From: an uncultured Candidatus Saccharibacteria bacterium
GTDB lineage: Bacteria > Patescibacteriota > Minisyncoccia > 2-02-FULL-40-12 > IGHO2-01-FULL-4-A
DNA length: 36,209 nucleotides
Direction of reading: 5' to 3'
Assembly: GCA_964364345.1 (NCBI GenBank)
Contig: CAYILQ010000002.1
Coordinates: 1-36,209, forward strand
The notes beneath the pieces were generated by a model. The model was given only the letters and a program-made list of their open reading frames with translations, did no database searches and was not told the origin of the DNA. The stretch's first letter is position 1. Each line of letters opens with the position of its first letter. Below, in pieces: positions 1,423-23,707 of the stretch. The position numbers and the translations under genes were made by a program.

Positions 1423-1890
1423 ATGAGGCGTACCATTAAACGAAAAATTTTTGTTGAACCAGACCGCAAATACCAGTCACCGCTTGTGGCCAGTTTTATA
1501 AATAAGGTGATGGAAAGGGGCAAAAAGACCGTGGCGGAAAAAATTGTCTATGGCGCCCTGGAGACAGCAGAGAAAAAATTAGGCAAGCCGGCTCTGGAGA
1601 TTTTTGAGGCGGCGATCAACAACGCCGGTCCCCAACTGGAATTAAGATCGCGCCGGATCGGCGGCGCCAATTACCAAGTGCCGTTTGAAGTTAGAAGTGG
1701 TCGTCGGACCACTCTGGCTTTGCGCTGGATAATCAAGGCCGCTCGCGGCGTCAAAGGCAAACCAATGGTTCAGAAACTTACCGAAGAATTAATTAATGCC
1801 TTCAACAATACCGGCGCGGCGGTCAAGAAGAAACAAGATACCCACCGCATGGCCGAAGCCAACAAAGCGTTCGCTCATTTTGCCTGGTGA
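1423..1890 (+). CDS. rpsG: 30S ribosomal protein S7
   Basis: 155-aa translation with S7 hallmarks ([38 protein letters not shown]). str-operon position. Confidence 0.97.
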
Positions 1891-1944
1891 GTATTTGTCT
1901 GGACGCAGACGAGCAAGGCGAGTCGAGTACAGCAACAAATGCTC

Positions 1945-2107
1945 ATCCCCCACCACTTTTGCCGGTAACCGACGGCGCAGGCGGCCCGAATAGGGAATTC
2001 CGCCTCCGGCGGAACTGGCTGTTCGCCCCCGCCGCGCAGCTGGAATTAACGGTACTATCCTGATCAAACTTTAAGTATAACTTTCTTGAGCAAAAGTGGT
2101 GGGGGAT
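1945..2107. repeat. 163-bp palindromic element with perfect 18-bp termini in the rpsG-fusA spacer
   Basis: ATCCCCCACCACTTTTGC (1945-1962) is the exact reverse complement of GCAAAAGTGGTGGGGGAT (2090-2107). The interior is GC-rich with a CCGCC-TC-CGGCGG mini-hairpin. Spurious ORFs are open on both strands across it. Confidence 0.75.
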
Positions 2108-2135
2108 CTCATTTTGTTACCCAATCGCTTCGCTC

Positions 2136-4439
2136 TTGGACAAAATGGATTATCCCATCGAGAAAATCCGAAACATCGGCATCATCGCTCACATTGACGC
2201 TGGCAAGACAACCGTCACCGAGCGGGTTTTGTTTTACACCGGCGTTTCTCACAAGATTGGGGAGGTCCACGAGGGCGAGACCATCACCGACTGGATGGAG
2301 CAGGAACGGGAACGGGGGATTACCATTACGGCCGCGGCGGTTACCTGTTATTGGCGGCCTACTTATCAAGTAAATCAATCATCTGCCGAAGTTGCTTCTG
2401 CCGAGCTTTCGCAACCGTCAGCTCGTCCCGGTGCCGAAATTAAACCGGTCTTTGACGCCACGTCCCGGAAGTCCCGCCCCGACAATATCGGGGGCGGAGC
2501 GGCCAGAAGGCAAGGCAATATCGGCACGGGGACGGCTGCTCAACGCGTTGCGGTTCAACCTCGGCAGCGGGACGCCGAGCACCGAATAAACATCATCGAC
2601 ACCCCCGGCCACATCGATTTTACGGTCGAAGTCAAACGTTCGCTAAGAGTTCTTGACGGAGCAGTCGTGGTTTTTGACGGAGTGGCCGGGGTGGAGCCCC
2701 AATCGGAAACCAACTGGCGTTACGCCGACGAGTACGGCGTGCCCCGGATTTGTTTTATCAACAAACTTGATCGTTTGGGCGCTTCCTTTGAACGATCTTT
2801 CAGGTCAATTCTTGAGCGCTTGACCCCCTATGCCGTCAGGATGCAACTGCCCGATGGCGAGGAAGACAATTTCAAAGGCGTGGTTAATCTTTTGGAAATG
2901 AAATATTACGTCTTTGAAGGCGATCACGGCGAAAGGGTGGTGGAACAGCCGATTCTTTCAGCCCAACTGATGAAAGCTGCCGAAGTTGCCCGCCATGAAC
3001 TGGTTGAAAAAATTGTTGAGCACGACGACCAGGCAATGCACGACTACTTGGAGGGTAAAGAAATTCCCGTCCAACGTTTGCGGGAGATTTTGAGAAAAGC
3101 CGCCATCGCCAACAAACTGGTGCCGGTTTTCACCGGTTCGGCTTTGCGTAACAAGGGTGTTCAATTTGTTCTTGACGGAGTGATTGAATACTTGCCTTCC
3201 CCGATTGACAAGCCGGCAGTCAAAGGGGCTGAACCCAGAACCGGTCAGGAAATCACCCGCCAGCCCGATGAAAAAGAACCCTTCGCGGCTTTGGCTTTCA
3301 AAATCGCGACTGATGCCTATGTCGGTCAGCTGGCATTCTTCCGGGTTTATTCGGGCGTGCTCGCCGCCGGTTCTTATGTTCTAAACAGCGTTAGCGGTCA
3401 ACAGGAACGAATCGGCCGAGTCCTGCGCATGCGAGCTAACGACCGAGAAGAGATCGGAGAAGTCTATGCCGGCAATATTGCCGCCGCTGTCGGCCTCAAA
3501 GCCACCAGAACCGGCGATACTTTGTGCGACCCGGAGAACCCGATTATTTTGGAAAAGATAATTTTCCCCGAGCCGGTAATATCATTGCGCATTGAGCCCA
3601 AGACTAAAGCCGATCAGGAAAAGATGAGTTTGGCTTTGAAGAAACTGGCCGATGAAGACCCGACGTTTAGAATCAAGACCGATGAGGAAACCGCCGAAAT
3701 GATCATTTCGGGCATGGGCGAATTGCATCTGGAAATCATCGTTGAGCGGATGAAAAGAGAATTCAACGTCGGCGCCAATGTCGGCCGGCCCCAAGTGGCC
3801 TATAAAGAGACTATTAAACAAGAGGCCCAAGCCGAGGGCAAGTACATCCGCCAATCCGGCGGCCGAGGTCAGTACGGCCATGTTTGGCTGCGGGTTGAAC
3901 CCCAGCCGCGCGGCGGCGGTTTTGAGTTTATTGATGAGATCAAAAGCGGGGTCATCCCCAACGAGTTTATTCCGGCGATAGAGAAGGGGGCGCGCGAAGC
4001 CATAGACAAAGGCGTGGTCGCCGGCTTTCCCCTGGTGGACATGGCGGTGGCAGTTTATGATGGTTCCTACCACGAGGTTGACTCGTCGGAGATTGCCTTC
4101 AAAATCGCCGCTTCGGCGGCATTGCAGGAGGCGGTCAAGCGGGCCAAGCCGGTGATTCTTGAACCGATTATGAAAGTCGAGGTGATTGTGCCGGAGAAGT
4201 TTTTGGGCGAAGTCATGGGCGATCTTAATAGCCGACGCGGCCGAATTGAACAGACCAGCGACCGTTCGCCATTGAATCTCAAAGTTATTGACGCCAAGGT
4301 GCCCTTGTCAGAAATGTTTGGCTACGCCACCACCATCCGGTCACTGTCAGAAGGCCGCGGCTCTTACACCATGGAATTCAGCCGCTACGAGGAAGTGCCG
4401 GCTGGTATTGCAGAGTTGATCAAAGAAGGCAAGAAATAG
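2136..4439 (+). CDS. fusA: Elongation factor G carrying a 75-aa insertion in the G domain
   Basis: 767 aa with AHIDAGKTT (G1), DTPGHIDF (G3), NKLDR (G4) and full domains II-V ([27 protein letters not shown]). About 70 aa longer than typical EF-G because of the segment at 2355-2579. Confidence 0.95.
2355..2579. repeat. GC-rich imperfect palindromic element translated in frame inside fusA
   Basis: Arms 2383-2394/2556-2567 pair at 11/12 and 2423-2437/2521-2535 at 13/15, with a central GC hairpin near 2475-2496. Shares GTGCCGAAATT and GTTCAAnnTCGGCAGCGGGACG with 22925-23015. Confidence 0.65.
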
Positions 4440-4560
4440 CCGCTGGGTGGGAAAACTTTTTTTCCGTGTCCTGCGTCTAAAAATTAAAATATTTTGGCCC
4501 ACCTCGCAGTTTGTCAGGTTTTTATTTTCTGTCAGATCAATCGGGCCAAGGTGCGGCCGT

Positions 4561-4589
4561 TTGACTTGTGATTTTTGGTTTGCTATACT
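4561..4589 (+). promoter_or_regulatory. Sigma70-like promoter, TTGACT-17-TATACT
   Basis: -35 TTGACT at 4561-4566, 17-nt spacer, -10 TATACT at 4584-4589. About 225-240 nt upstream of the RRM-protein start. Confidence 0.5.
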
Positions 4590-4627
4590 GGCTGCAGCGT
4601 AGGTGTGTTCTCCTAGGTATAAGCCGG

Positions 4628-4733
4628 CTGTAGGGAAACCTAAGCATTGGCATCTGCCCCGACCCCGCCAGGGCGGGATCGAGGATCCACGATCCCGCCA
4701 TGGCGGGATCGGGAGAATAGGTCTTCCCTACAG
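4628..4733. repeat. 106-bp nested palindrome in the leader of the RRM-protein gene
   Basis: The outer stem pairs CTGTAGGGAAACCTA (4628-4642) with TAGGTCTTCCCTACAG (4718-4733). Inside are CCCGCC-AG-GGCGGG (4664-4677), GGGATCG/CGATCCC, and the perfect 20-bp palindrome GATCCCGCCATGGCGGGATC (4691-4710). Confidence 0.7.
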
Positions 4734-4815
4734 AAGTGAAAAGCGCGAAGCGAAAAGCGAAAAAGGCAAGGCAAAGAGGAATCATCTTTTGAGTTTTGCA
4801 CTCTAAGCTTTACGT

Positions 4816-5175
4816 TTGGCGGTAGCGAACGTGAGTAAAAAGTTATATGTTGGTGGTTTGCCTTACAGCGCCACCGATGATCAGTTGCGGCAGCACTTCT
4901 CCCAAGCCGGGAACGTGGAATCTGCCCAGGTGGTCATAGACAAGTTCTCGGGCCGCTCCCGAGGCTTCGGCTTTGTCGAAATGTCTTCCGATGAGGAAGC
5001 CAACAAAGCCATTGAGATGTTGAACGGCCAAGATTTTGGCGGCCGGAACATCACTGTCAATGAAGCCCGACCAATGGAGGCCAGAGCGCCTCGTCAAGGC
5101 GGCTTTAACCGCGGCGGCGGCGGCCGAGGCTTTGGCGGCCGAGGCGGCTACGGCGGCGGTTTGGACAGGTACTAA
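4816..5175 (+). CDS. RRM-type RNA-binding protein with a glycine/arginine-rich tail
   Basis: RNP-2 LYVGGL, RNP-1 RGFGFVEM, and a C-terminal RGGGGRGFGGRGGYGGG tail. The ORF opens at TTG 4816; in-frame GTG at 4831 (MSKKLYVGGL) is an equally plausible start. Confidence 0.9.
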   Translation: MAVANVSKKLYVGGLPYSATDDQLRQHFSQAGNVESAQVVIDKFSGRSRGFGFVEMSSDEEANKAIEMLNGQDFGGRNITVNEARPMEARAPRQGGFNRGGGGRGFGGRGGYGGGLDRY

Positions 5176-5200
5176 CCTGATCTGGCCGGCCAACTAACCC

Positions 5201-5236
5201 AACCCCGCCGCGTCAAACGCGGCGGGGTTTGTGTTT
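5201..5236 (+). terminator. Intrinsic terminator between convergent genes
   Basis: Perfect 13-bp stem AACCCCGCCGCGT / ACGCGGCGGGGTT with a 3-nt loop, followed by TGTGTTT. Confidence 0.7.
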
Positions 5237-5239
5237 CTG

Positions 5240-5698
5240 CTATCTGGTTGGTTGGCAAGTGCCAGCGGCAGTGGCTTGTGAGCTGTTCTGGTTTTGCTGG
5301 GCGGGCGTTAGATGATCGGCCGGGAACGGAGTTTTGTCTATCAAAGCGTCAATAATCCGGCCAACGGTTGAGCGAACAATCCCACCCAACCCAGCCCCAC
5401 TAGTATCGTTTGCTTGAGCGACCTGATTCAACAGATCTTTTGATTTGGCGATTAAACCCTGACTGTTTTTGATCTTGCTTTTAACGTCGGTTTGATTTTT
5501 GGCCGAGCCGGCCTCCTCAATGGCCGATTCAAGCAGAGCCAGGTTTTCTTTCAATTCACCGAGAATCCTGGCTTCTTTGACGGCGGGATTGATGACCTCA
5601 ATGACTTTCTGTTTGAAGCTGGGCAATTGGTTAATCAAAAAGCCCCCGCCAATAGCCACAATCAGGAAAAAAATGATAAACTTGACCAGAAACCCCAC
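5240..5698 (-). CDS. Hypothetical membrane-anchored protein
   Basis: 152 aa, GTG start. N-terminal TM helix (FLVKFIIFFLIVAIGGGFLI) followed by a helical/coiled region. No recognisable family. Confidence 0.55.
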   Translation of the reverse strand: MGFLVKFIIFFLIVAIGGGFLINQLPSFKQKVIEVINPAVKEARILGELKENLALLESAIEEAGSAKNQTDVKSKIKNSQGLIAKSKDLLNQVAQANDTSGAGLGGIVRSTVGRIIDALIDKTPFPADHLTPAQQNQNSSQATAAGTCQPTR

Positions 5699-5736
5699 GC
5701 TAATATCATATCATATTTTCTTGGATTTGACTGGTG

Positions 5737-5745
5737 TGCTATAAT
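5737..5745 (+). promoter_or_regulatory. Extended -10 promoter (TGcTATAAT) 7 nt upstream of ATG 5753
   Basis: TG at 5737-5738 and TATAAT at 5740-5745. The spacing implies a leaderless or near-leaderless transcript. Confidence 0.45.
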
Positions 5746-5752
5746 TAACTCA

Positions 5753-5986
5753 ATGCCAAAAGTAGAAATCTATACCACTCCCTATTGCGCCTATTGCAAA
5801 ATGGCCAAGGAGTATTTTACCAAAAACAATATCCAGTACACCGAATACGATGTGGCTGCTGACGTTGCCCGGCGCCAGGAAATGCTTGATAAAACCCACC
5901 AGTTCGGGGTGCCCGTCATAATAATTGATGGTAAAATTGTGATTGGCTTTGACCGGCCCAAGATTAACCAGTTGTTGGGGTTATAG
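5753..5986 (+). CDS. Glutaredoxin-like / NrdH-like small redoxin
   Basis: 77 aa starting MPKVEIYTTPYCAYCKMAKE with a CxxC motif, then a GVPVIIIDGK thioredoxin-fold signature. The longer ORF 5492..5986 overlaps the opposite-strand gene and was trimmed to this ATG. Confidence 0.85.
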   Translation: MPKVEIYTTPYCAYCKMAKEYFTKNNIQYTEYDVAADVARRQEMLDKTHQFGVPVIIIDGKIVIGFDRPKINQLLGL

Positions 5987-6171: not shown

Positions 6172-6831
6172 ATGGATTCTAAACCTCTGCCATTCAAAAA
6201 ACTCAACGGTATTTCCGAAAAAACTCTGGAGATCCACCACGACAAGCTTTATGTCGGCTATGTAAAGAAGGTTGATGAGATTGAGGAGAAGCTGGGAAAA
6301 CTAAGGGACGAGATTATAGCCGGTACGGCCCCGGGCGGGAATGCGACTTACAGCGAACTTCGGGCCTTAAAAGACGCCGAGACTTTTGCCGTCAACGGCG
6401 TCTATCTTCACGAGTGGTATTTTGATGTCTTAGGCGTCCCCGTGCCTGATATTGATACCGGCCTTGGGCGCGAAGGGACCGAGGGCGGCGCTTACTCAAA
6501 GGCCCCGGAATTGAGCAAAGCGATTTCTGAAAAATGGGGCTCGGTTGAAAATTTCATGAGATATTTTTCTGAATGCGGCATGGCTTCGCGCGGTTGGTCG
6601 CTTCTGGTTTGGGACACCAAGCGGGGAAGACTGATGCAGTACAACGGCGACGCCCACAATCAAGGCGGGGTCTGGGGCTGCCTCCCCATCATCGTCCTTG
6701 ACGTTTACGAACACGCCTATTTCATTGACTTCGGCTCCGACCGCAAGGCCTACATTGAAGCTTTCTGGCGGAATCTCAATTGGTCAGCGGCAGAGGCATT
6801 ATTTCTCACGGTTAGAAATGTTAAGTTATAA
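6172..6831 (+). CDS. Fe/Mn-family superoxide dismutase
   Basis: N-terminal LEIHHDKLYVGYV, mid LHEWYF, and C-terminal DVYEHAYFIDFGSDRKAYIEAFWRNLNW (the D-x-[WY]-E-H-A-Y signature). Has a short extra loop before the SEKWGS segment. Confidence 0.85.
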   Translation: MDSKPLPFKKLNGISEKTLEIHHDKLYVGYVKKVDEIEEKLGKLRDEIIAGTAPGGNATYSELRALKDAETFAVNGVYLHEWYFDVLGVPVPDIDTGLGREGTEGGAYSKAPELSKAISEKWGSVENFMRYFSECGMASRGWSLLVWDTKRGRLMQYNGDAHNQGGVWGCLPIIVLDVYEHAYFIDFGSDRKAYIEAFWRNLNWSAAEALFLTVRNVKL

Positions 6832-9668: not shown

Positions 9669-10220
9669 ATGAAAAATATGATTTATCTCGGCTCCGATCA
9701 CAGAGGATACGAGTTGAAGGAGAAAATCAAGAAGTGGCTTTTAGATTGGGGTTATCAGTCTGAAGACTGCGGCGCTTTTGAATATGACGAAAAAGACGAC
9801 TATCCGGACTTTGTTCATGGAGTCGCCCAAAAAGTTTCCGCAGACCCGGAAAATTCAAAAGCGATCATTCTGGGCGGTTCCGGACAGGGTGAGGCAATGG
9901 TGGCGAACCGGTATAAAGGTGTCAGAGCGGCGGTTTTTTACGGGCCCCCGTTTCAGTTTAAGATGATGTCGTGGTCTAAATGGCTTATCTTAGGCAGCGG
10001 GGGGCTTAATGTGGCCCAGAAGAGCGAATTTTCCGTTCTGCAAAAACTTGTTAAACTGTCTCGCGAACACAATGATGCCAATGTCTTGTCTCTGGGCGCT
10101 TCCTTCGTTGATGACGACGTGGCCCAAAAGATAATCAAACTCTGGCTGGAGACACCGTTTAGCGGCGAAGAGAGGCATATTAGGCGCCTTGGTAAAATAG
10201 AGGATTTGAAAAATGACTAG
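9669..10220 (+). CDS. rpiB: RpiB/LacA/LacB-family ribose-5-phosphate isomerase
   Basis: MKNMIYLGSDHRGYELKEKI..., SGQGEAMVANR, LSREHNDANVLSLGA and a C-terminal ERHIRR. The ORF opens at 9624 but ATG 9669 or 9678 fit the family N-terminus. About 22 extra residues precede LSREHND. Confidence 0.8.
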   Translation: MKNMIYLGSDHRGYELKEKIKKWLLDWGYQSEDCGAFEYDEKDDYPDFVHGVAQKVSADPENSKAIILGGSGQGEAMVANRYKGVRAAVFYGPPFQFKMMSWSKWLILGSGGLNVAQKSEFSVLQKLVKLSREHNDANVLSLGASFVDDDVAQKIIKLWLETPFSGEERHIRRLGKIEDLKND

Positions 10221-10463: not shown

Positions 10464-11204
10464 TGAGAGTACTCTCATGGTGACTTGAGGTGCGACCTCA
10501 AATAAATGAGAAAGGTAAAGTTTGTCAAAGGAGAGTTTTTCCATGTCTATAATCGTGGCGTGGATAAGCGCAATATTTTCCTGGATCAGGGGGATTATTT
10601 GAGGTTTTGCAAAGCGCTTAAATTTTTTAATTCCGAGAGTCCTTGCTGGATAGCAACGGTTAACAGAAAAGACCAAACTCCTTCCCCCGAAGATCAATTG
10701 GTGGATGTAATCTGCTTTTGTTTAATGCCTAATCATTATCATCTGCTTTTGCGGCCAATAACCGAAAATGGGGTGACCAAGTTCATGCGTAAACTAAACA
10801 CCGGCTATACTATTTATTTTAATATTAAGCATCAGAGAACCGGTAGATTGTTTGAAAATAAATTTAAAGCCATCCATGTTGATAACGACCTGTACCTTAA
10901 ACACCTTACTCGATATATCCACTTAAACCCGCTTGATCTGTATCAAGGTGAATGGCGGGAGGGCAAAGTAGGGAACGCCAAATCATCCTTGCGATACATA
11001 GAGGATTATCCGTGGTCAAGTTATTCCAGCTATGTTTCGAAATTTAAGCGCAATGATATAATTAACCCTAAACCGCTAATGGAAATCTTTGGAGGCGAAA
11101 ACTATGAAAACTTTGTTGCCTCTTGGACAGCACGTGATTTCGATACGGTCAGACCATTGACGCTGGAATAGTTTGTGTTTTGTTGAGGTCGCACCTCAAT
11201 AAAT
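10464..11204 (+). mobile_element. IS200/RAYT-like unit: Y1 (HUH) transposase bounded by terminal hairpins
   Basis: TTGAGGT-GCG-ACCTCAA (10485-10501) and TTGAGGT-CGC-ACCTCAA (11183-11199) have the same stem and complementary loops, and each is followed by (A)TAAAT. They lie 715 bp end to end, and a 14-bp palindrome TGAGAGTACTCTCA (10464-10477) sits just upstream. Confidence 0.7.
10506..11171 (+). CDS. IS200-like / REP-associated tyrosine (Y1, HUH) transposase
   Basis: 221 aa. HUH motif in CLMPNHYHLLLRP and a catalytic-Tyr motif RYIHLNP, as in the Y1_Tnp (PF01797-type) RAYT-like proteins. Confidence 0.85.
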   Translation: MRKVKFVKGEFFHVYNRGVDKRNIFLDQGDYLRFCKALKFFNSESPCWIATVNRKDQTPSPEDQLVDVICFCLMPNHYHLLLRPITENGVTKFMRKLNTGYTIYFNIKHQRTGRLFENKFKAIHVDNDLYLKHLTRYIHLNPLDLYQGEWREGKVGNAKSSLRYIEDYPWSSYSSYVSKFKRNDIINPKPLMEIFGGENYENFVASWTARDFDTVRPLTLE

Positions 11205-15478: not shown

Positions 15479-16335
15479 GAACCTTGGCCGAATACTTCCA
15501 AGATGCTAAAGCTAATCGATGGGCGATTGGCCATTTTAATTTTTCCACGGCCGATCAGTTAAAAGCGATTGTGGAAACGGCGGCGGAGCTCAAGTCGCCG
15601 GTGATGGCGGGGACTTCGGAGGGCGAGGCCAAGTTTATCGGTTACGATCAAGCGGTGGCTTTGGCGCGGTCCTATCAAGAAGAGGGCCATGCCGTTTGGC
15701 TCAACGCCGACCATCACAAGAGTTTTGAATCTTGCAAGATGGCTATTGACGCTGGTTATGACACGGTTTTGATTGATGCCTCTAGATTGCCGCTGGCGGA
15801 AAACATTGCTTTGACAAAGAAAGTCGTTGATTATGCTAGCTCGATCAATGCCGAGATTGCCGTTGAAGGCGAACTTGGCTATTTAAGAGGGGAGTCGCAA
15901 GTTCAGGAAAAAGTTGAGATCAGCCCCAGCGATTACACCCAGCCCCAGGAGGCTTCAGATTTTGTCAGTCGTACCGGCGTCGGCCGACTGGCGATTGTTT
16001 TCGGCAATATCCATGGCATCGTTACCCAACAAGAGGAACATCTCGATGCCAACGCCCTCAAAGCGATCGCGGCAGCTGTGCCAAATGTTGCCTTAGTACT
16101 CCACGGCGCCTCGGGCCTGCCGGCTGCCGAAGTTGGAGAAGCGATAGCTAACGGTATCGCCAATATCCACATCAACACCGAGCTCCGGCTGGTTTATCAC
16201 GATAAATTGCACGAAGAGTTGGAAAAAGAGCCGGGACAAACTACGCCCTACAAATTCCTGACCCCATCTCTTGAAGCGATGAAGGAATTAATCAGCCAAA
16301 AACTCAAACTTTTCGGCTCGGAGAACAAGATCTAG
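15475..16335 (+). CDS. fba: Class II fructose-bisphosphate aldolase
   Basis: 286 aa with GHFNF, ADHHKS, VEGELG, GNIHG and LVLHGASG motifs of class II ketose-bisphosphate aldolases. Confidence 0.9.
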   Translation: MRTLAEYFQDAKANRWAIGHFNFSTADQLKAIVETAAELKSPVMAGTSEGEAKFIGYDQAVALARSYQEEGHAVWLNADHHKSFESCKMAIDAGYDTVLIDASRLPLAENIALTKKVVDYASSINAEIAVEGELGYLRGESQVQEKVEISPSDYTQPQEASDFVSRTGVGRLAIVFGNIHGIVTQQEEHLDANALKAIAAAVPNVALVLHGASGLPAAEVGEAIANGIANIHINTELRLVYHDKLHEELEKEPGQTTPYKFLTPSLEAMKELISQKLKLFGSENKI

Positions 16336-21740: not shown

Positions 21741-22118
21741 TTAGCTGGTCTTTTTCAAATTTTTCATCAGTTGCTCAAAAAGTTCCAAGTAATCGCGAAA
21801 GCGTTTAGAAATTTCTTCGGCCAGCTCCTCATTGTAAGTATGAACAGTTAAATTTCGATCATCAATCATTTTTAGCCACTTCTCATTGTCCTGCATTAAC
21901 TCAAACTTGAAACCTTCCTGAAAACACTCTTTGGGCGAGCGGCAAACAATCCCTTGGACTCTAAGTGATTTTTGAATATTTTTCCAAGCCAGCTCAAAAG
22001 TGAACTCGAATCTTTTTATCGAAGCGTCGCGATTTTCCACGCTTTTTTCCTTAGCTAAAACCTCCCGGAATCTTTCCAGGGAGTTTTCAAATGATTCTAA
22101 TAACTCTTGGTCGGTCAT
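21741..22118 (-). CDS. HEPN-type nucleotidyltransferase substrate-binding protein (HI0074-like toxin)
   Basis: 125 aa with RFEFTFELAWKNIQKSL, typical of the NTase_sub_bind/HEPN family. Lies immediately downstream of an MNT gene. Confidence 0.8.
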   Translation of the reverse strand: MTDQELLESFENSLERFREVLAKEKSVENRDASIKRFEFTFELAWKNIQKSLRVQGIVCRSPKECFQEGFKFELMQDNEKWLKMIDDRNLTVHTYNEELAEEISKRFRDYLELFEQLMKNLKKTS

Positions 22119-22123
22119 AGAGT

Positions 22124-22429
22124 TTATAATGGTTTGGCGTGCTCAAGAGCGGCATGCCTGAATTTTTCGCCCACCAAATTGAGATCTACAACATCAATTT
22201 TTCGAAGAGTGGGAATTTGCTCCACTTCTTGTCGGATCTTGAACATTAAATTATCCGGCACCTTTTCCTTGCCCAGAATACCGATGTCAATGTCAGAAGT
22301 CTTTGACGCGGTACCCTTGGCCCACGAACCAAAAAGCATAATTTGATAGTCGGAGGGCAAATATTCCTTGGTTATTTTTTGCACTTCTTTAACAATTTTT
22401 TCTTGTTCCATGTACTCGTATTTTAGCAC
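22124..22429 (-). CDS. Minimal nucleotidyltransferase (MNT, HI0073-like antitoxin)
   Basis: 101 aa with the LFGSWAKGTASKTSDIDIGIL (GS-x9-SDxD) polymerase-beta-type NTase motif. Confidence 0.85.
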   Translation of the reverse strand: MLKYEYMEQEKIVKEVQKITKEYLPSDYQIMLFGSWAKGTASKTSDIDIGILGKEKVPDNLMFKIRQEVEQIPTLRKIDVVDLNLVGEKFRHAALEHAKPL

Positions 22430-22535: not shown

Positions 22536-22620
22536 TGGTGCCGATGGAGGGAGTTGAACCCTCAAGCCTTGCGGCACACGCTCCTGAAGCGTGCGTGTTT
22601 GCCAATTTCACCACATCGGC
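22536..22620 (-). tRNA. tRNA-Leu (anticodon CAG), CCA encoded
   Basis: Hand-folded cloverleaf: acceptor GCCGATG/CATCGGC, anticodon stem CACGC/GCGTG with loop TTCAGGA, long variable arm, T arm GAGGG-TTCAACT-CCCTC, then A-CCA. Its 5' end is 1 nt from the pgi stop. Confidence 0.9.
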
Positions 22621-22621
22621 C

Positions 22622-23707
22622 TTAAGACCGCGATTTCTTAAAGGTTTCTATGGCGGATGCGTCAAGAGGATCAACCCCTAAATGGCGAGCTAAATCAAAG
22701 GAAGTCGAGACCGCCAGGTTGTAGTTGCCAAGAATTTTTTCAAGTCTGCCGCCGCCCGTCAGTTTGATGACTTCGTGATCAATACCCATAGCCGCCAGAA
22801 ACGAGGCGAACTTTTCCAGTATGTCTTTGTCGGCTTTGTCTTCGTCAGGGTCGGCTAGGATTATCGGAAAAGGTTTAAGTGTTCCAACGGCATTGCCAAT
22901 GAACTGCCGACCTTGCTCGCCCTCGTGCCGAAATTGAGCTTGCCTTTGGCACGAAGGGACGGAAGGACAAAAGGGACTTGCTGGCAAAGCCAAGTTCAAT
23001 TTCGGCAGCGGGACGGTCAATGTCGGCGCCGGGACGCTCGGCGCCGGGACGGCGAAGCCGGCCAATTCATTGTGGGCCGCTTCGGGAAAGTAGTTTGAGA
23101 ACGAATGAATCTTGCAATCCTCATTAAAATTAGTCTTCCAGAACTTGGCCAGATAACGCCATTGGTAGGACGAGTAAATCAGAGGTGTTTTGAAACCGAT
23201 CCGACTGGAGAACCTAGGGCCAACAACAGGTTTGGTCTGGATATTGGTTGGCAGCTTGAAATCAATGATAGCAGAATTGTTAAGCAGTGTCAACAAAGAG
23301 GCCAGCATATAGCCAACTCCGAGTCTTGGTGGTACTGGATCGTCAGGTAGTTTGATTAAAAGTGCGTCATGTTCTCGGGCAGTCTTGGCCAACTCACCAC
23401 CCTTAGTTATAGCTGCTGTGGGGATTCCCAATTCTTGGGCCGCCTTAAAAGATGAAATTGTCTCTTCGGTATTGCCCGACCAGGAAGTGCAAATGATCAG
23501 GTGCTCACGACCGGCCCAATGGGGGAGACCAAAACCCCGCTGGATGTAACAATTGAAGCCGTCAAGCCAGAGCGTTGAGATTATCTCTCCCGGAATCGCC
23601 GAACCGCCCAGGCCGCAGAAAATTACCCGGCTAAAATCACCGGAAACCTTGACATTTTTGGCCGCTTTAGCCCCTTCGGCTAGCTGCCTGGGAAAGTTAA
23701 TGGTCAT
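22622..23707 (-). CDS. Bifunctional phosphoglucose/phosphomannose isomerase (SIS domain) with a ~57-aa insertion
   Basis: 361 aa. SIS motifs (FCGLGGSAIPG, ICTSWSGNTEET) and PEAAHNE in the C-terminal half. A proline-rich low-complexity block (aa ~219-275) interrupts it. Confidence 0.8.
   Translation of the reverse strand: MTINFPRQLAEGAKAAKNVKVSGDFSRVIFCGLGGSAIPGEIISTLWLDGFNCYIQRGFGLPHWAGREHLIICTSWSGNTEETISSFKAAQELGIPTAAITKGGELAKTAREHDALLIKLPDDPVPPRLGVGYMLASLLTLLNNSAIIDFKLPTNIQTKPVVGPRFSSRIGFKTPLIYSSYQWRYLAKFWKTNFNEDCKIHSFSNYFPEAAHNELAGFAVPAPSVPAPTLTVPLPKLNLALPASPFCPSVPSCQRQAQFRHEGEQGRQFIGNAVGTLKPFPIILADPDEDKADKDILEKFASFLAAMGIDHEVIKLTGGGRLEKILGNYNLAVSTSFDLARHLGVDPLDASAIETFKKSRS
22904..23062. 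repeat. GC-rich palindromic element (same family as 2355-2579) translated in frame inside pgi
   Basis: Arms 22925-22942 / 22991-23008 pair at 16/18. TCGGC(A/G)(G/C)CGGGACG occurs three times (23002, 23023, 23038). Shares an 11/11 and a 20/22 core with the fusA element in the same plus-strand orientation, although the host gene is on the minus strand. Confidence 0.65.

Follow-up and report, generated by a model that had tools for sequence, protein, structure and literature searches.

What kind of DNA is the proline-rich block that interrupts a central isomerase gene in an uncultured Candidatus Saccharibacteria bacterium, and is it the same kind of DNA as an insertion in a translation gene of the same contig? 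The question arises from a stretch of 36,209 nt (contig CAYILQ010000002.1, positions 1 to 36,209; this whole stretch is called the window below), in which an earlier note had recognized one palindromic repeat family inside both the phosphoglucose/phosphomannose isomerase gene (pgi) and fusA, the gene of elongation factor G (EF-G). [quoted passage not shown] The family to which it belongs is spread across many lineages of the Patescibacteria (candidate phyla radiation, CPR).

The host gene (22622..23707, minus strand) encodes a bifunctional phosphoglucose/phosphomannose isomerase (PGI) of 361 aa with SIS and bact-PGI_C domains, as assigned through Pfam (PF10432, 73.3 bits against a cutoff of 24.5), homologues, and an AlphaFold2 (AF2) model. 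The 90 homologues found are mostly about 305 aa long. In the translation of the open reading frame (ORF) 22622-23707, the block AVPAPSVPAPTLTVPLPKLNLALPASPFCPSVPSCQRQAQFRHEGEQGRQ is placed between AHNELAGF and FPIIL, and an alignment of 22 of the 90 homologues gives the window protein about 55 extra residues at this position, which agrees with the block of about 57 aa described in the earlier note. The variable block comprises residues 219-279 (22871..23053, minus strand), as delimited by the orthologue alignment and by a DNA alignment in which locus L218 is empty and locus L001 is filled, and it stands in place of an orthologue loop of about eight residues, giving the net gain of about 55 aa. 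The comparison with block-free orthologues that had been proposed thus holds for most of them, but the closest one (L001) has a homologous copy. The AF2 model, with the orthologue alignment as input, has a mean predicted local distance difference test (pLDDT) value of 84.8 with 253 residues at or above 90, and shows a confident SIS fold. Residues 224-227 and 229-274 have pLDDT values below 50 and are modelled as coil between the helix 212-219 and the strand 279-285; residues 224-274 are thus predicted to form a disordered surface loop that leaves the fold intact. Predicted insert or junction peptides are, for example, LNLALPASPFCPSVPSCQR for pgi and PVFDATSR for EF-G.

The strongest evidence on the origin of the block comes from outside the window. 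A covariance model (R1) was built from 14 copies of unrelated metagenomes, with neither the window nor any pgi gene among their sources, and in the 36-kb window it finds only two sites below E 0.05, one in pgi (22918..23015, 52.4 bits, E 4.4e-12) and one in fusA (2424..2534, 46.6 bits, E 1.6e-10), which supports the view that the two genes share one palindromic repeat family. The pgi core is 98 nt long, lies on the plus strand, matches R1 end to end (model positions 1-94), and aligns over its full length with the family. Its L arm CGCCCTCGTGCCGAAATTG (22918-22936, plus strand) matches the family L arm at 16/19 positions, its R arm CAATTTCGGCAGCGGGACG (22997-23015, plus strand) matches the family exactly, and its inner part contains a small GGCAAAGCC hairpin; as DNA, the core is a hairpin with a folding z of -4.2. 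Around this core, the whole composite copy extends from 22904 to 23051 (plus strand). It begins with a partial extra L-arm-like repeat CTGCCGACCTTGCT (22904..22917, plus strand), which is a direct repeat and also an inverted repeat with 22997-23008, and it ends with two extra R-arm repeats, GTCAATGTCGGCGCCGGGACG followed by CTCGGCGCCGGGACG (23016..23051, plus strand). The latter hold the 15-nt tandem coding VPAPS/VPAPT to which the earlier note had pointed: TCGGCGCCGGGACG occurs exactly at 23023 and 23038, at a spacing of 15 nt, with a third copy (86%) at 23002. The hairpin arms that had been noted as pairing at 16/18 positions fall within longer inverted arms (22906-22956 and 22977-23027), which are 51 nt long and 76% complementary. 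In the mRNA sense the insert folds with -71.5 kcal/mol (z = -4.9), and 0 of 200 shuffles are as good.

The second full element core (2424..2534, minus strand, 111 nt) lies inside fusA and retains both 19-nt arms with one to two changes each. It is accompanied by an extra half element (2535..2574, plus strand), which consists of a GCTCAACGC hairpin and the R arm CAACCTCGGCAGCGGGACG and gives a partial R1 match at 2546-2574, and by two partial L-arm-like repeats on its 5' side, CTGCCGAAGTTG and CTGCCGAGCTT (2383..2411, plus strand), which are inverted repeats with 2556-2567. Each window copy is thus a composite of one full element and extra arm repeats, and the pgi copy is somewhat decayed. The fusA insert folds with -96 kcal/mol (z = -3.7) and sits in a variable loop of the EF-G GTPase domain, after TCYW. 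When the pgi insert is compared directly with the fusA insert (2355-2580), the two matches reported before are found again, an 11/11 match (GTGCCGAAATT) and a 22-mer matching at 20/22 positions, the latter within the half element 2535-2574; by blastn the inserts match with E ~1e-6 in both orientations. The 14-nt core TCGGCNNCGGGACG occurs with at most one mismatch at six sites in the 36 kb, all within the two inserts, and with two mismatches at 12 sites against 3.3 expected. None of 100 shuffled sequences reaches 12, so the control by which the likeness of the two inserts might have been explained as chance failed to reproduce the motif count.

More than 70 contigs from unrelated Patescibacteria metagenomes and metagenome-assembled genomes (MAGs) contain copies bordered by the same 19-nt arms. 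A metagenome scan with the exact 19-mer CAATTTCGGCAGCGGGACG returned 85 stretches, 73 of them of low GC content, and 72 of these 73 contain an element supported by the profile. The Hainich groundwater wells were the source of many of the matches. A GTDB scan with 16 specified bases gave mostly chance matches in high-GC genomes, with nine Patescibacteria loci among the matches listed; the GTDB MAGs with the element are labelled Paceibacterota, Sungiibacteriota, Saccharibacteria, and Patescibacteria. Three matches in viral contigs were rejected as chance, all being of high GC content and without element context. With copies put in register, the canonical element is about 95 nt long (range 81-141) and has terminal inverted repeats of 19 nt, CGTCCCaGTGCCGAAATTG ... 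CAATTTCGGCAGCGGGACG (the family arms are also written CGTCCCnGTGCCGAAATTG / CAATTTCGGCAGCGGGACG). Its parts follow each other in the order L arm CGTCCC(A/C)GTGCCGAAATTG, then CGTTGAGC or its complement, a GTCCC-loop-GGGAC hairpin, a small hairpin with a variable stem, and the R arm CAATTTCGGCAGCGGGACG. The L and R arms pair save for a conserved 2-nt mismatch and are conserved in 26 non-identical full copies. In the small hairpin beside the R arm, pairing is kept although the stems differ (mean -4.2 kcal/mol, against -3.3 kcal/mol in shuffles; p = 2e-4). Copies can be dense, as in a 5-kb stretch (L111) with nine arm copies. In open-access full text, no description of the motif or of such a CPR element family was found, and an Rfam scan of the window and 14 element-bearing loci at the gathering threshold gave only tRNAs, rRNAs, and a T-box, leaving the element unmatched. 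The idea that the R arm is a look-alike of a tRNA T-arm was dropped, as neither ARAGORN nor Rfam supports it.

The earlier note had stated that both window copies lie in the same orientation although their host genes do not. This stands for the shared R-arm 22-mer, which is on the plus strand in both pgi (minus) and fusA (plus) and is therefore read in opposite senses, but it is unclear for the cores: the 98- and 111-nt cores are near-palindromic, and R1 prefers the plus strand for pgi (52.4 vs 45.7 bits) and the minus strand for fusA (46.6 vs 36.7 bits). That the element is read in both orientations and gives different peptides is borne out, as the pgi and fusA peptides differ and the family is translated in both orientations and in several frames. 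Among 26 full genic copies, 16 are antisense and 10 sense, and 21 start at codon position 1. The arm is read as VPLPKL in pgi and as RPGAEI, NIGTGT, and QPRQRD in fusA; since one arm yields such different peptides, the repeat is conserved at the DNA level and not as a peptide module. A repeat selected to be stop-free, as had been suggested, is found only in part. The share of stop-free frames is 65% in genic copies, 50% in intergenic copies, and about 32% in composition-matched shuffles, so the element is stop-poor and selection on insertions adds to this, without its being free of stops in the strict sense; part of the effect is explained by survivorship in genes.

To tally genic and intergenic copies, as had been proposed, about 0.55 Mb of low-GC loci were scanned with the profile, a copy being counted as genic when the ORF extends past both of its ends by 60 aa or more. 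The 116 non-identical copies divide into 49 genic ones, 29 that are intergenic or at a gene edge, and 38 ambiguous ones. In-frame hosts elsewhere include a Zn-dependent alcohol dehydrogenase (L112), a CAP-domain protein (L051), and membrane proteins. The family has also entered ribosomal RNA. The 23S rRNA gene of locus L183 (1948-5565) is 3618 nt long against a model of 2925 nt and contains six element copies, whose combined sequence (692 nt) explains essentially the whole excess. Further copies in this locus (1461-5932) lie 5' of the 23S gene, between the 23S and 5S genes, and after the 5S gene, so that up to about ten copies are present within 7.2 kb. In L183 the family therefore occurs as stem-loop insertions within a 23S gene, which is how intervening sequences (IVSs) of rRNA are defined; the window copies are in protein-coding genes. 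Together with the block-free orthologues of both window genes, the presence of copies in ORFs, intergenic DNA, and 23S rRNA across more than 70 contigs supports the proposal of a mobile or recombinogenic repeat.

The two window copies appear to differ in their history. The fusA block is absent from all 119 best EF-G homologues (697-736 aa, up to 85% identical, several of them from Candidatus Yanofskybacteria) and is, judged from these sequences, a lineage-specific gain. For pgi, the closest orthologue (L001, 58% amino acid identity) has a homologous, co-linear copy that shares the insertion site and the gene-relative orientation but is without the 36 nt that form the tandem arm repeats of the window and hence without the VPAPS/VPAPT tandem. 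Between window and L001, the insert is 67% identical in nucleotides, much as the flanking gene is (63-71%), which suggests that the insertion is probably ancestral to both genes. Of the two independent in-frame copies that had been claimed, the one in pgi is probably no independent recent insertion. The other aligned PGI orthologues have no element at this site, and none was detected by R1 in the orthologous regions (31 kb) of five other contigs with PGI or EF-G homologues.

Several of these orthologues have unrelated short inserts in the same loop or elsewhere. The pgi orthologue of locus L003 (P0022) has two in-frame copies (10088-10109 and 10727-10748) of another 22-nt repeat, GGCGAGCCTCGTCTkGGACGGG, which encodes GEPRLGR, one of them in the same loop after AGF as the window insert. 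A different repeat in the same place marks this loop as a permissive hotspot. Further unrelated inserts are found in the CPR PGIs P0007, P0019, P0023, and P0046.

With regard to how the repeat arrived and changed, recent events can be read from near-identical contigs (flank identity 85-100%). Two of them (L130 136-230 and L200 1489-1600) differ by a 16-nt arm duplication, of the same kind as the extra R-arm repeats in pgi, with flanks that are 100% identical, and two others (L111 1099-1363 and L160 977-1106) differ by one whole extra abutting element, whose R arm is fused to the L arm via a shared CG. Such differences between near-identical contigs indicate that the change in copy number is recent. 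We propose that a copy entered, or was inherited in, the surface loop of PGI between the helix 212-219 and the strand 279-285, where, the frame being kept and no stop codon being introduced, it would be translated as a disordered Pro/Ala-rich loop of about 55 aa that the enzyme tolerates. The second copy would likewise have settled in EF-G, in a loop of the GTPase domain that is variable by nature, and the tandem arm repeats would then have arisen through slippage and through unequal exchange from arm to arm. The spread itself would be due to a protein recognizing the conserved arms; the conservation of the arms as sequence, essentially without covariation, fits such recognition. The insert would on this account be neutral or selfish rather than adaptive.

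Several observations weigh against this account. The evidence from this genome is one 36-kb contig. No target-site duplication or target motif was detected in the flanks of 26 copies, nor was a target-site duplication present at the pgi and fusA junctions when these were compared with empty sites. In 0.5 Mb of loci there was no autonomous parent bounded by the same arms, and no empty/filled pair with near-identical flanks was found for a whole first insertion. The arm pairing has almost no covariation beyond sequence conservation: 94.6% of arm positions are paired in 117 aligned rows (in which one copy may appear on both strands) and 94.0% in shuffles, a comparison for which the arms are too conserved to tell, all the more since the R arm of R1 was fixed by the 19-mer search, which limits what can be read from arm covariation. 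At 67% identity to L001, the pgi copy is more conserved than a neutral passenger should be, which hints at constraint or at refreshment by gene conversion from other copies. Moreover, that the insert is translated rather than removed is something we infer.

A rival that refines rather than replaces the reading of a tolerated non-autonomous repeat makes the element the partner of a particular zinc-ribbon/PD-(D/E)XK nuclease, which would recognize the arms and spread the element by cut-and-repair or homing-like copying. We regard this as possible but rather unlikely. The protein, of about 400 aa, is encoded in 13 of 55 non-redundant motif-selected loci (24%), within a few kb of the element, and has both an IS1/IS1595-type zinc ribbon (NCBIfam NF050000, 35 bits, cutoff 28) and a RecB/Cas4-like nuclease domain (Pfam PDDEXK_1, 30 bits, cutoff 22). 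Its family has at least 1470 members, which are 63-97% identical across Kaiserbacteria, Sungiibacteriota, Nomurabacteria, and Taylorbacteria; this is more than for PGI among its own homologues (~50%) and suggests horizontal spread. Element-derived peptides occur in 40 of 120 of its homologues as compared with 2 of 90 PGIs and 1 of 120 EF-Gs, and the inserts lie at no fewer than four different sites of the gene, as preferential action in cis would have it, the nuclease peppering its own gene with copies. On the other hand, the 36-kb window has no homologue, two of four protein-selected loci are without the element within 20 kb, and the gene lacks bordering arms oriented as in an insertion sequence (IS). 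Part of the co-occurrence may also be a matter of ascertainment, as an old copy at the N-terminus of the gene includes the very 19-mer with which the scan was made. With a pLDDT of 56 the AF2 model is poor, and its weak Foldseek matches to AddA/RecB/Cas4 nuclease domains (E >= 4e-3) agree with Pfam but are not decisive; a sequence search against the PDB gave no match. A conserved chromosomal neighbourhood, with a giant S74 protein and a four-helix-bundle gene, fits a resident gene in a permissive region. A different mobiliser would be implied if the element were of the REP/REPIN type (repetitive extragenic palindromic sequences and their inverted doublets), moved by a REP-associated tyrosine transposase (RAYT), a Y1 HUH enzyme, and the window does encode a Y1_Tnp/RAYT-like protein (10506-11171, plus strand). 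As in REPINs, the element is an inverted doublet of a unit of about 19 nt with a conserved mismatch and no target-site duplication. This Y1 gene, however, is bracketed by its own 17-nt hairpins TTGAGGTSSSACCTCAA (TTGAGGTGCGACCTCAA at 10485 and TTGAGGTCGCACCTCAA at 11183, span 10485-11199), which share one stem but have the loop inverted, occur nowhere else in the window, and are unrelated to the element. At four further loci the Y1 genes have private hairpins that differ from gene to gene and do not match the element, tblastn finds Y1 homologues in only three motif-selected loci (two of them duplicates), and nearly half of the copies (49/116) are intragenic, unlike REPs. The window Y1/RAYT protein was therefore rejected as mobiliser, and a REPIN origin is very improbable.

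It has also to be considered that the hairpin is a selected RNA or DNA structure (a pause, RNase III, or protein-binding site), or that it is removed or bypassed so that no peptide arises. The very stable folds of both inserts would suit such a role, as would the recognizable arms kept in the 58%-identical L001 orthologue and the small hairpin beside the R arm that pairs with varying stems. The 23S copies also resemble IVSs excised by RNase III, and CPR rRNA insertions have been suggested to be IVS-like (PMC11270868). Yet copies sit at arbitrary sites in unrelated genes, spacers, and rRNA, the arms show essentially no covariation, and genic copies are always open and mostly begin at codon position 1, which would be needless if they were excised or bypassed. 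No bacterial mechanism is known that religates mRNA after hairpin excision, and overall this alternative is improbable. Still less credible is a home-grown low-complexity linker, created by replication slippage in GC-rich DNA, whose likeness to fusA is compositional chance. The 15-nt tandem and the repeated arm fragments show that slippage occurs in pgi, and unrelated short inserts in various loops of other CPR PGIs, including the L003 repeat, point the same way, but the externally derived R1 fits the full 98 nt (E 4e-12) and fusA (1.6e-10) and nothing else in 36 kb, the motif count exceeds all 100 shuffles, and the same arms recur in more than 70 unrelated contigs. Slippage is thereby refuted as a complete explanation and is left with a role only in the origin of the extra arm repeats. 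Finally, a metagenomic misassembly might have spliced a palindromic repeat into the contig, which belongs to a MAG; such repeats are difficult to assemble. This can be practically dismissed, given that both inserts keep the frame of highly conserved genes, that the homologous insert is present at this pgi site in L001, an independent assembly from another sample, and that the family is found in contigs from many projects and assemblers.

The tolerated palindromic repeat has close parallels among known systems. According to the passages of PMC10969869 that deal with them, RPEs (Ogata et al. 2000, Science 290:347) are about 100-150 bp long, often lie in-frame in unrelated housekeeping genes, and have no known transposase. 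The CPR element shares with them, as far as these passages describe RPEs, the palindromic form, the reduced genome of the host, the in-frame position in housekeeping genes with no transposase identified, and the translation as an extra peptide segment compatible with the fold (PMC10969869). The window copies, as palindromes in conserved ORFs with the frame intact and absent from orthologues, belong to this RPE-like class. They are set apart from RPEs by host and description: the hosts are Patescibacteria (with the best EF-G matches in Candidatus Yanofskybacteria) instead of Alphaproteobacteria, several phylum-level lineages are involved rather than one genus, the element is read in several frames and both orientations whereas an RPE family has one conserved peptide, and it is often composite, with tandem arm repeats and multiple copies in one 23S gene. 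Bacterial MITEs fused in-frame to ORFs are known from Coxiella (QMITE1/2, PMC5896051), and ERIC and BOX sequences can be intragenic (PMC10969869). Like MITEs, the element is short, non-coding, present in many copies, has terminal inverted repeats, and is occasionally fused in-frame to ORFs, but MITEs have target-site duplications and a parent IS (PMC5896051), neither of which was found for the CPR element (in the flanks of 26 copies and in 0.5 Mb of loci, respectively), and its intragenic fraction is far higher. With REPINs it has in common, beyond the architecture weighed above (an imperfect hairpin), that a particular gene is surrounded or invaded by repeats. This gene, however, codes not for a Y1 HUH enzyme but for the zinc-ribbon/PD-(D/E)XK nuclease, and REPINs are extragenic and tied to RAYTs, whereas 49 of 116 CPR copies are in long ORFs. 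CPR rRNA genes contain many short (<200 bp) insertions without ORFs that are not introns and are uncharacterised (PMC11270868); the six copies in the L183 23S gene are likewise ORF-less stem-loops below 200 bp. The family is thus a concrete candidate for some of these insertions, a link to repeats that also invade protein-coding genes which PMC11270868 does not draw.

In-frame palindromic selfish repeats are already known, and what is added here is the cross-phylum spread in CPR bacteria, the entry into 23S rRNA, and a non-canonical nuclease as a candidate partner. Selfish palindromes within essential coding genes have so far been treated mainly as a peculiarity of Rickettsia, and an unrelated family in the tiny genomes of Patescibacteria points to a recurrent outcome where compact genomes offer few neutral landing sites, as illustrated by hosts such as EF-G, a glycolytic isomerase, a dehydrogenase, and one 23S rRNA that was entered six times. 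In practice, such inserts inflate and distort CPR protein alignments and rRNA models and can be mistaken for lineage-specific 'domains', while the covariance model provides a handle for tracing horizontal exchange among CPR lineages. A more far-reaching proposal, which we hold to be doubtful, is an undescribed mobile system across CPR bacteria, in which a palindrome of about 95 nt is mobilised by the zinc-ribbon/PD-(D/E)XK nuclease, hence by neither a DDE nor an HUH transposase. If true, it would explain many of the short CPR rRNA insertions as well as part of the lineage-specific loops in CPR core proteins (EF-G, PGI), and the nuclease, as mobiliser, would represent a new class of transposition or homing enzyme.

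The nuclease gene belongs to a conserved neighbourhood in Parcubacteria (L194 4400-6133, L148 3704-5485, L111 671-3371, and L212-L215), in which it stands with the gene of a giant Peptidase_S74 protein (from 2350 to over 5200 aa long) and that of a protein of about 155 aa, which has no Pfam match and looks, by eye, like four-helix-bundle proteins; MazF or NYN genes often lie close by, and one homologue of the nuclease has a Hint/intein domain. Giant proteins in L148 (6059-8815), L194 (786-3696), and L167 contain GNVGIGTT protein repeats, whose DNA (AATGTCGGCATCGGGACG) differs from the R arm of the element at only 3 of 19 positions, a likeness that may be fortuitous or may hint at where the arm came from.

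Within the window, a further site may be a decayed half copy. It lies in the superoxide dismutase gene (6172-6831) at 6432..6485 (plus strand), reads VPVPDIDTGLGREG, and matches the pgi insert by blastn with 76% identity over 51 nt (E 1.2e-4), while model R1 does not detect it; the protein has about 15 extra residues (VPVPDIDTGLGREGTEGG) whose DNA is like the L arm and the inner part of the element. A weak R1 match at 16117-16191 (E = 0.07) was discarded as a native conserved stretch of a class II aldolase. Next to pgi, a tRNA-Leu gene (22536-22620) adjoins the stop codon, and between this gene and that of RNase J lies a gene pair (21741-22429) for a nucleotidyltransferase and an NTase-substrate-binding (HEPN-like) protein, typical of a toxin-antitoxin module.

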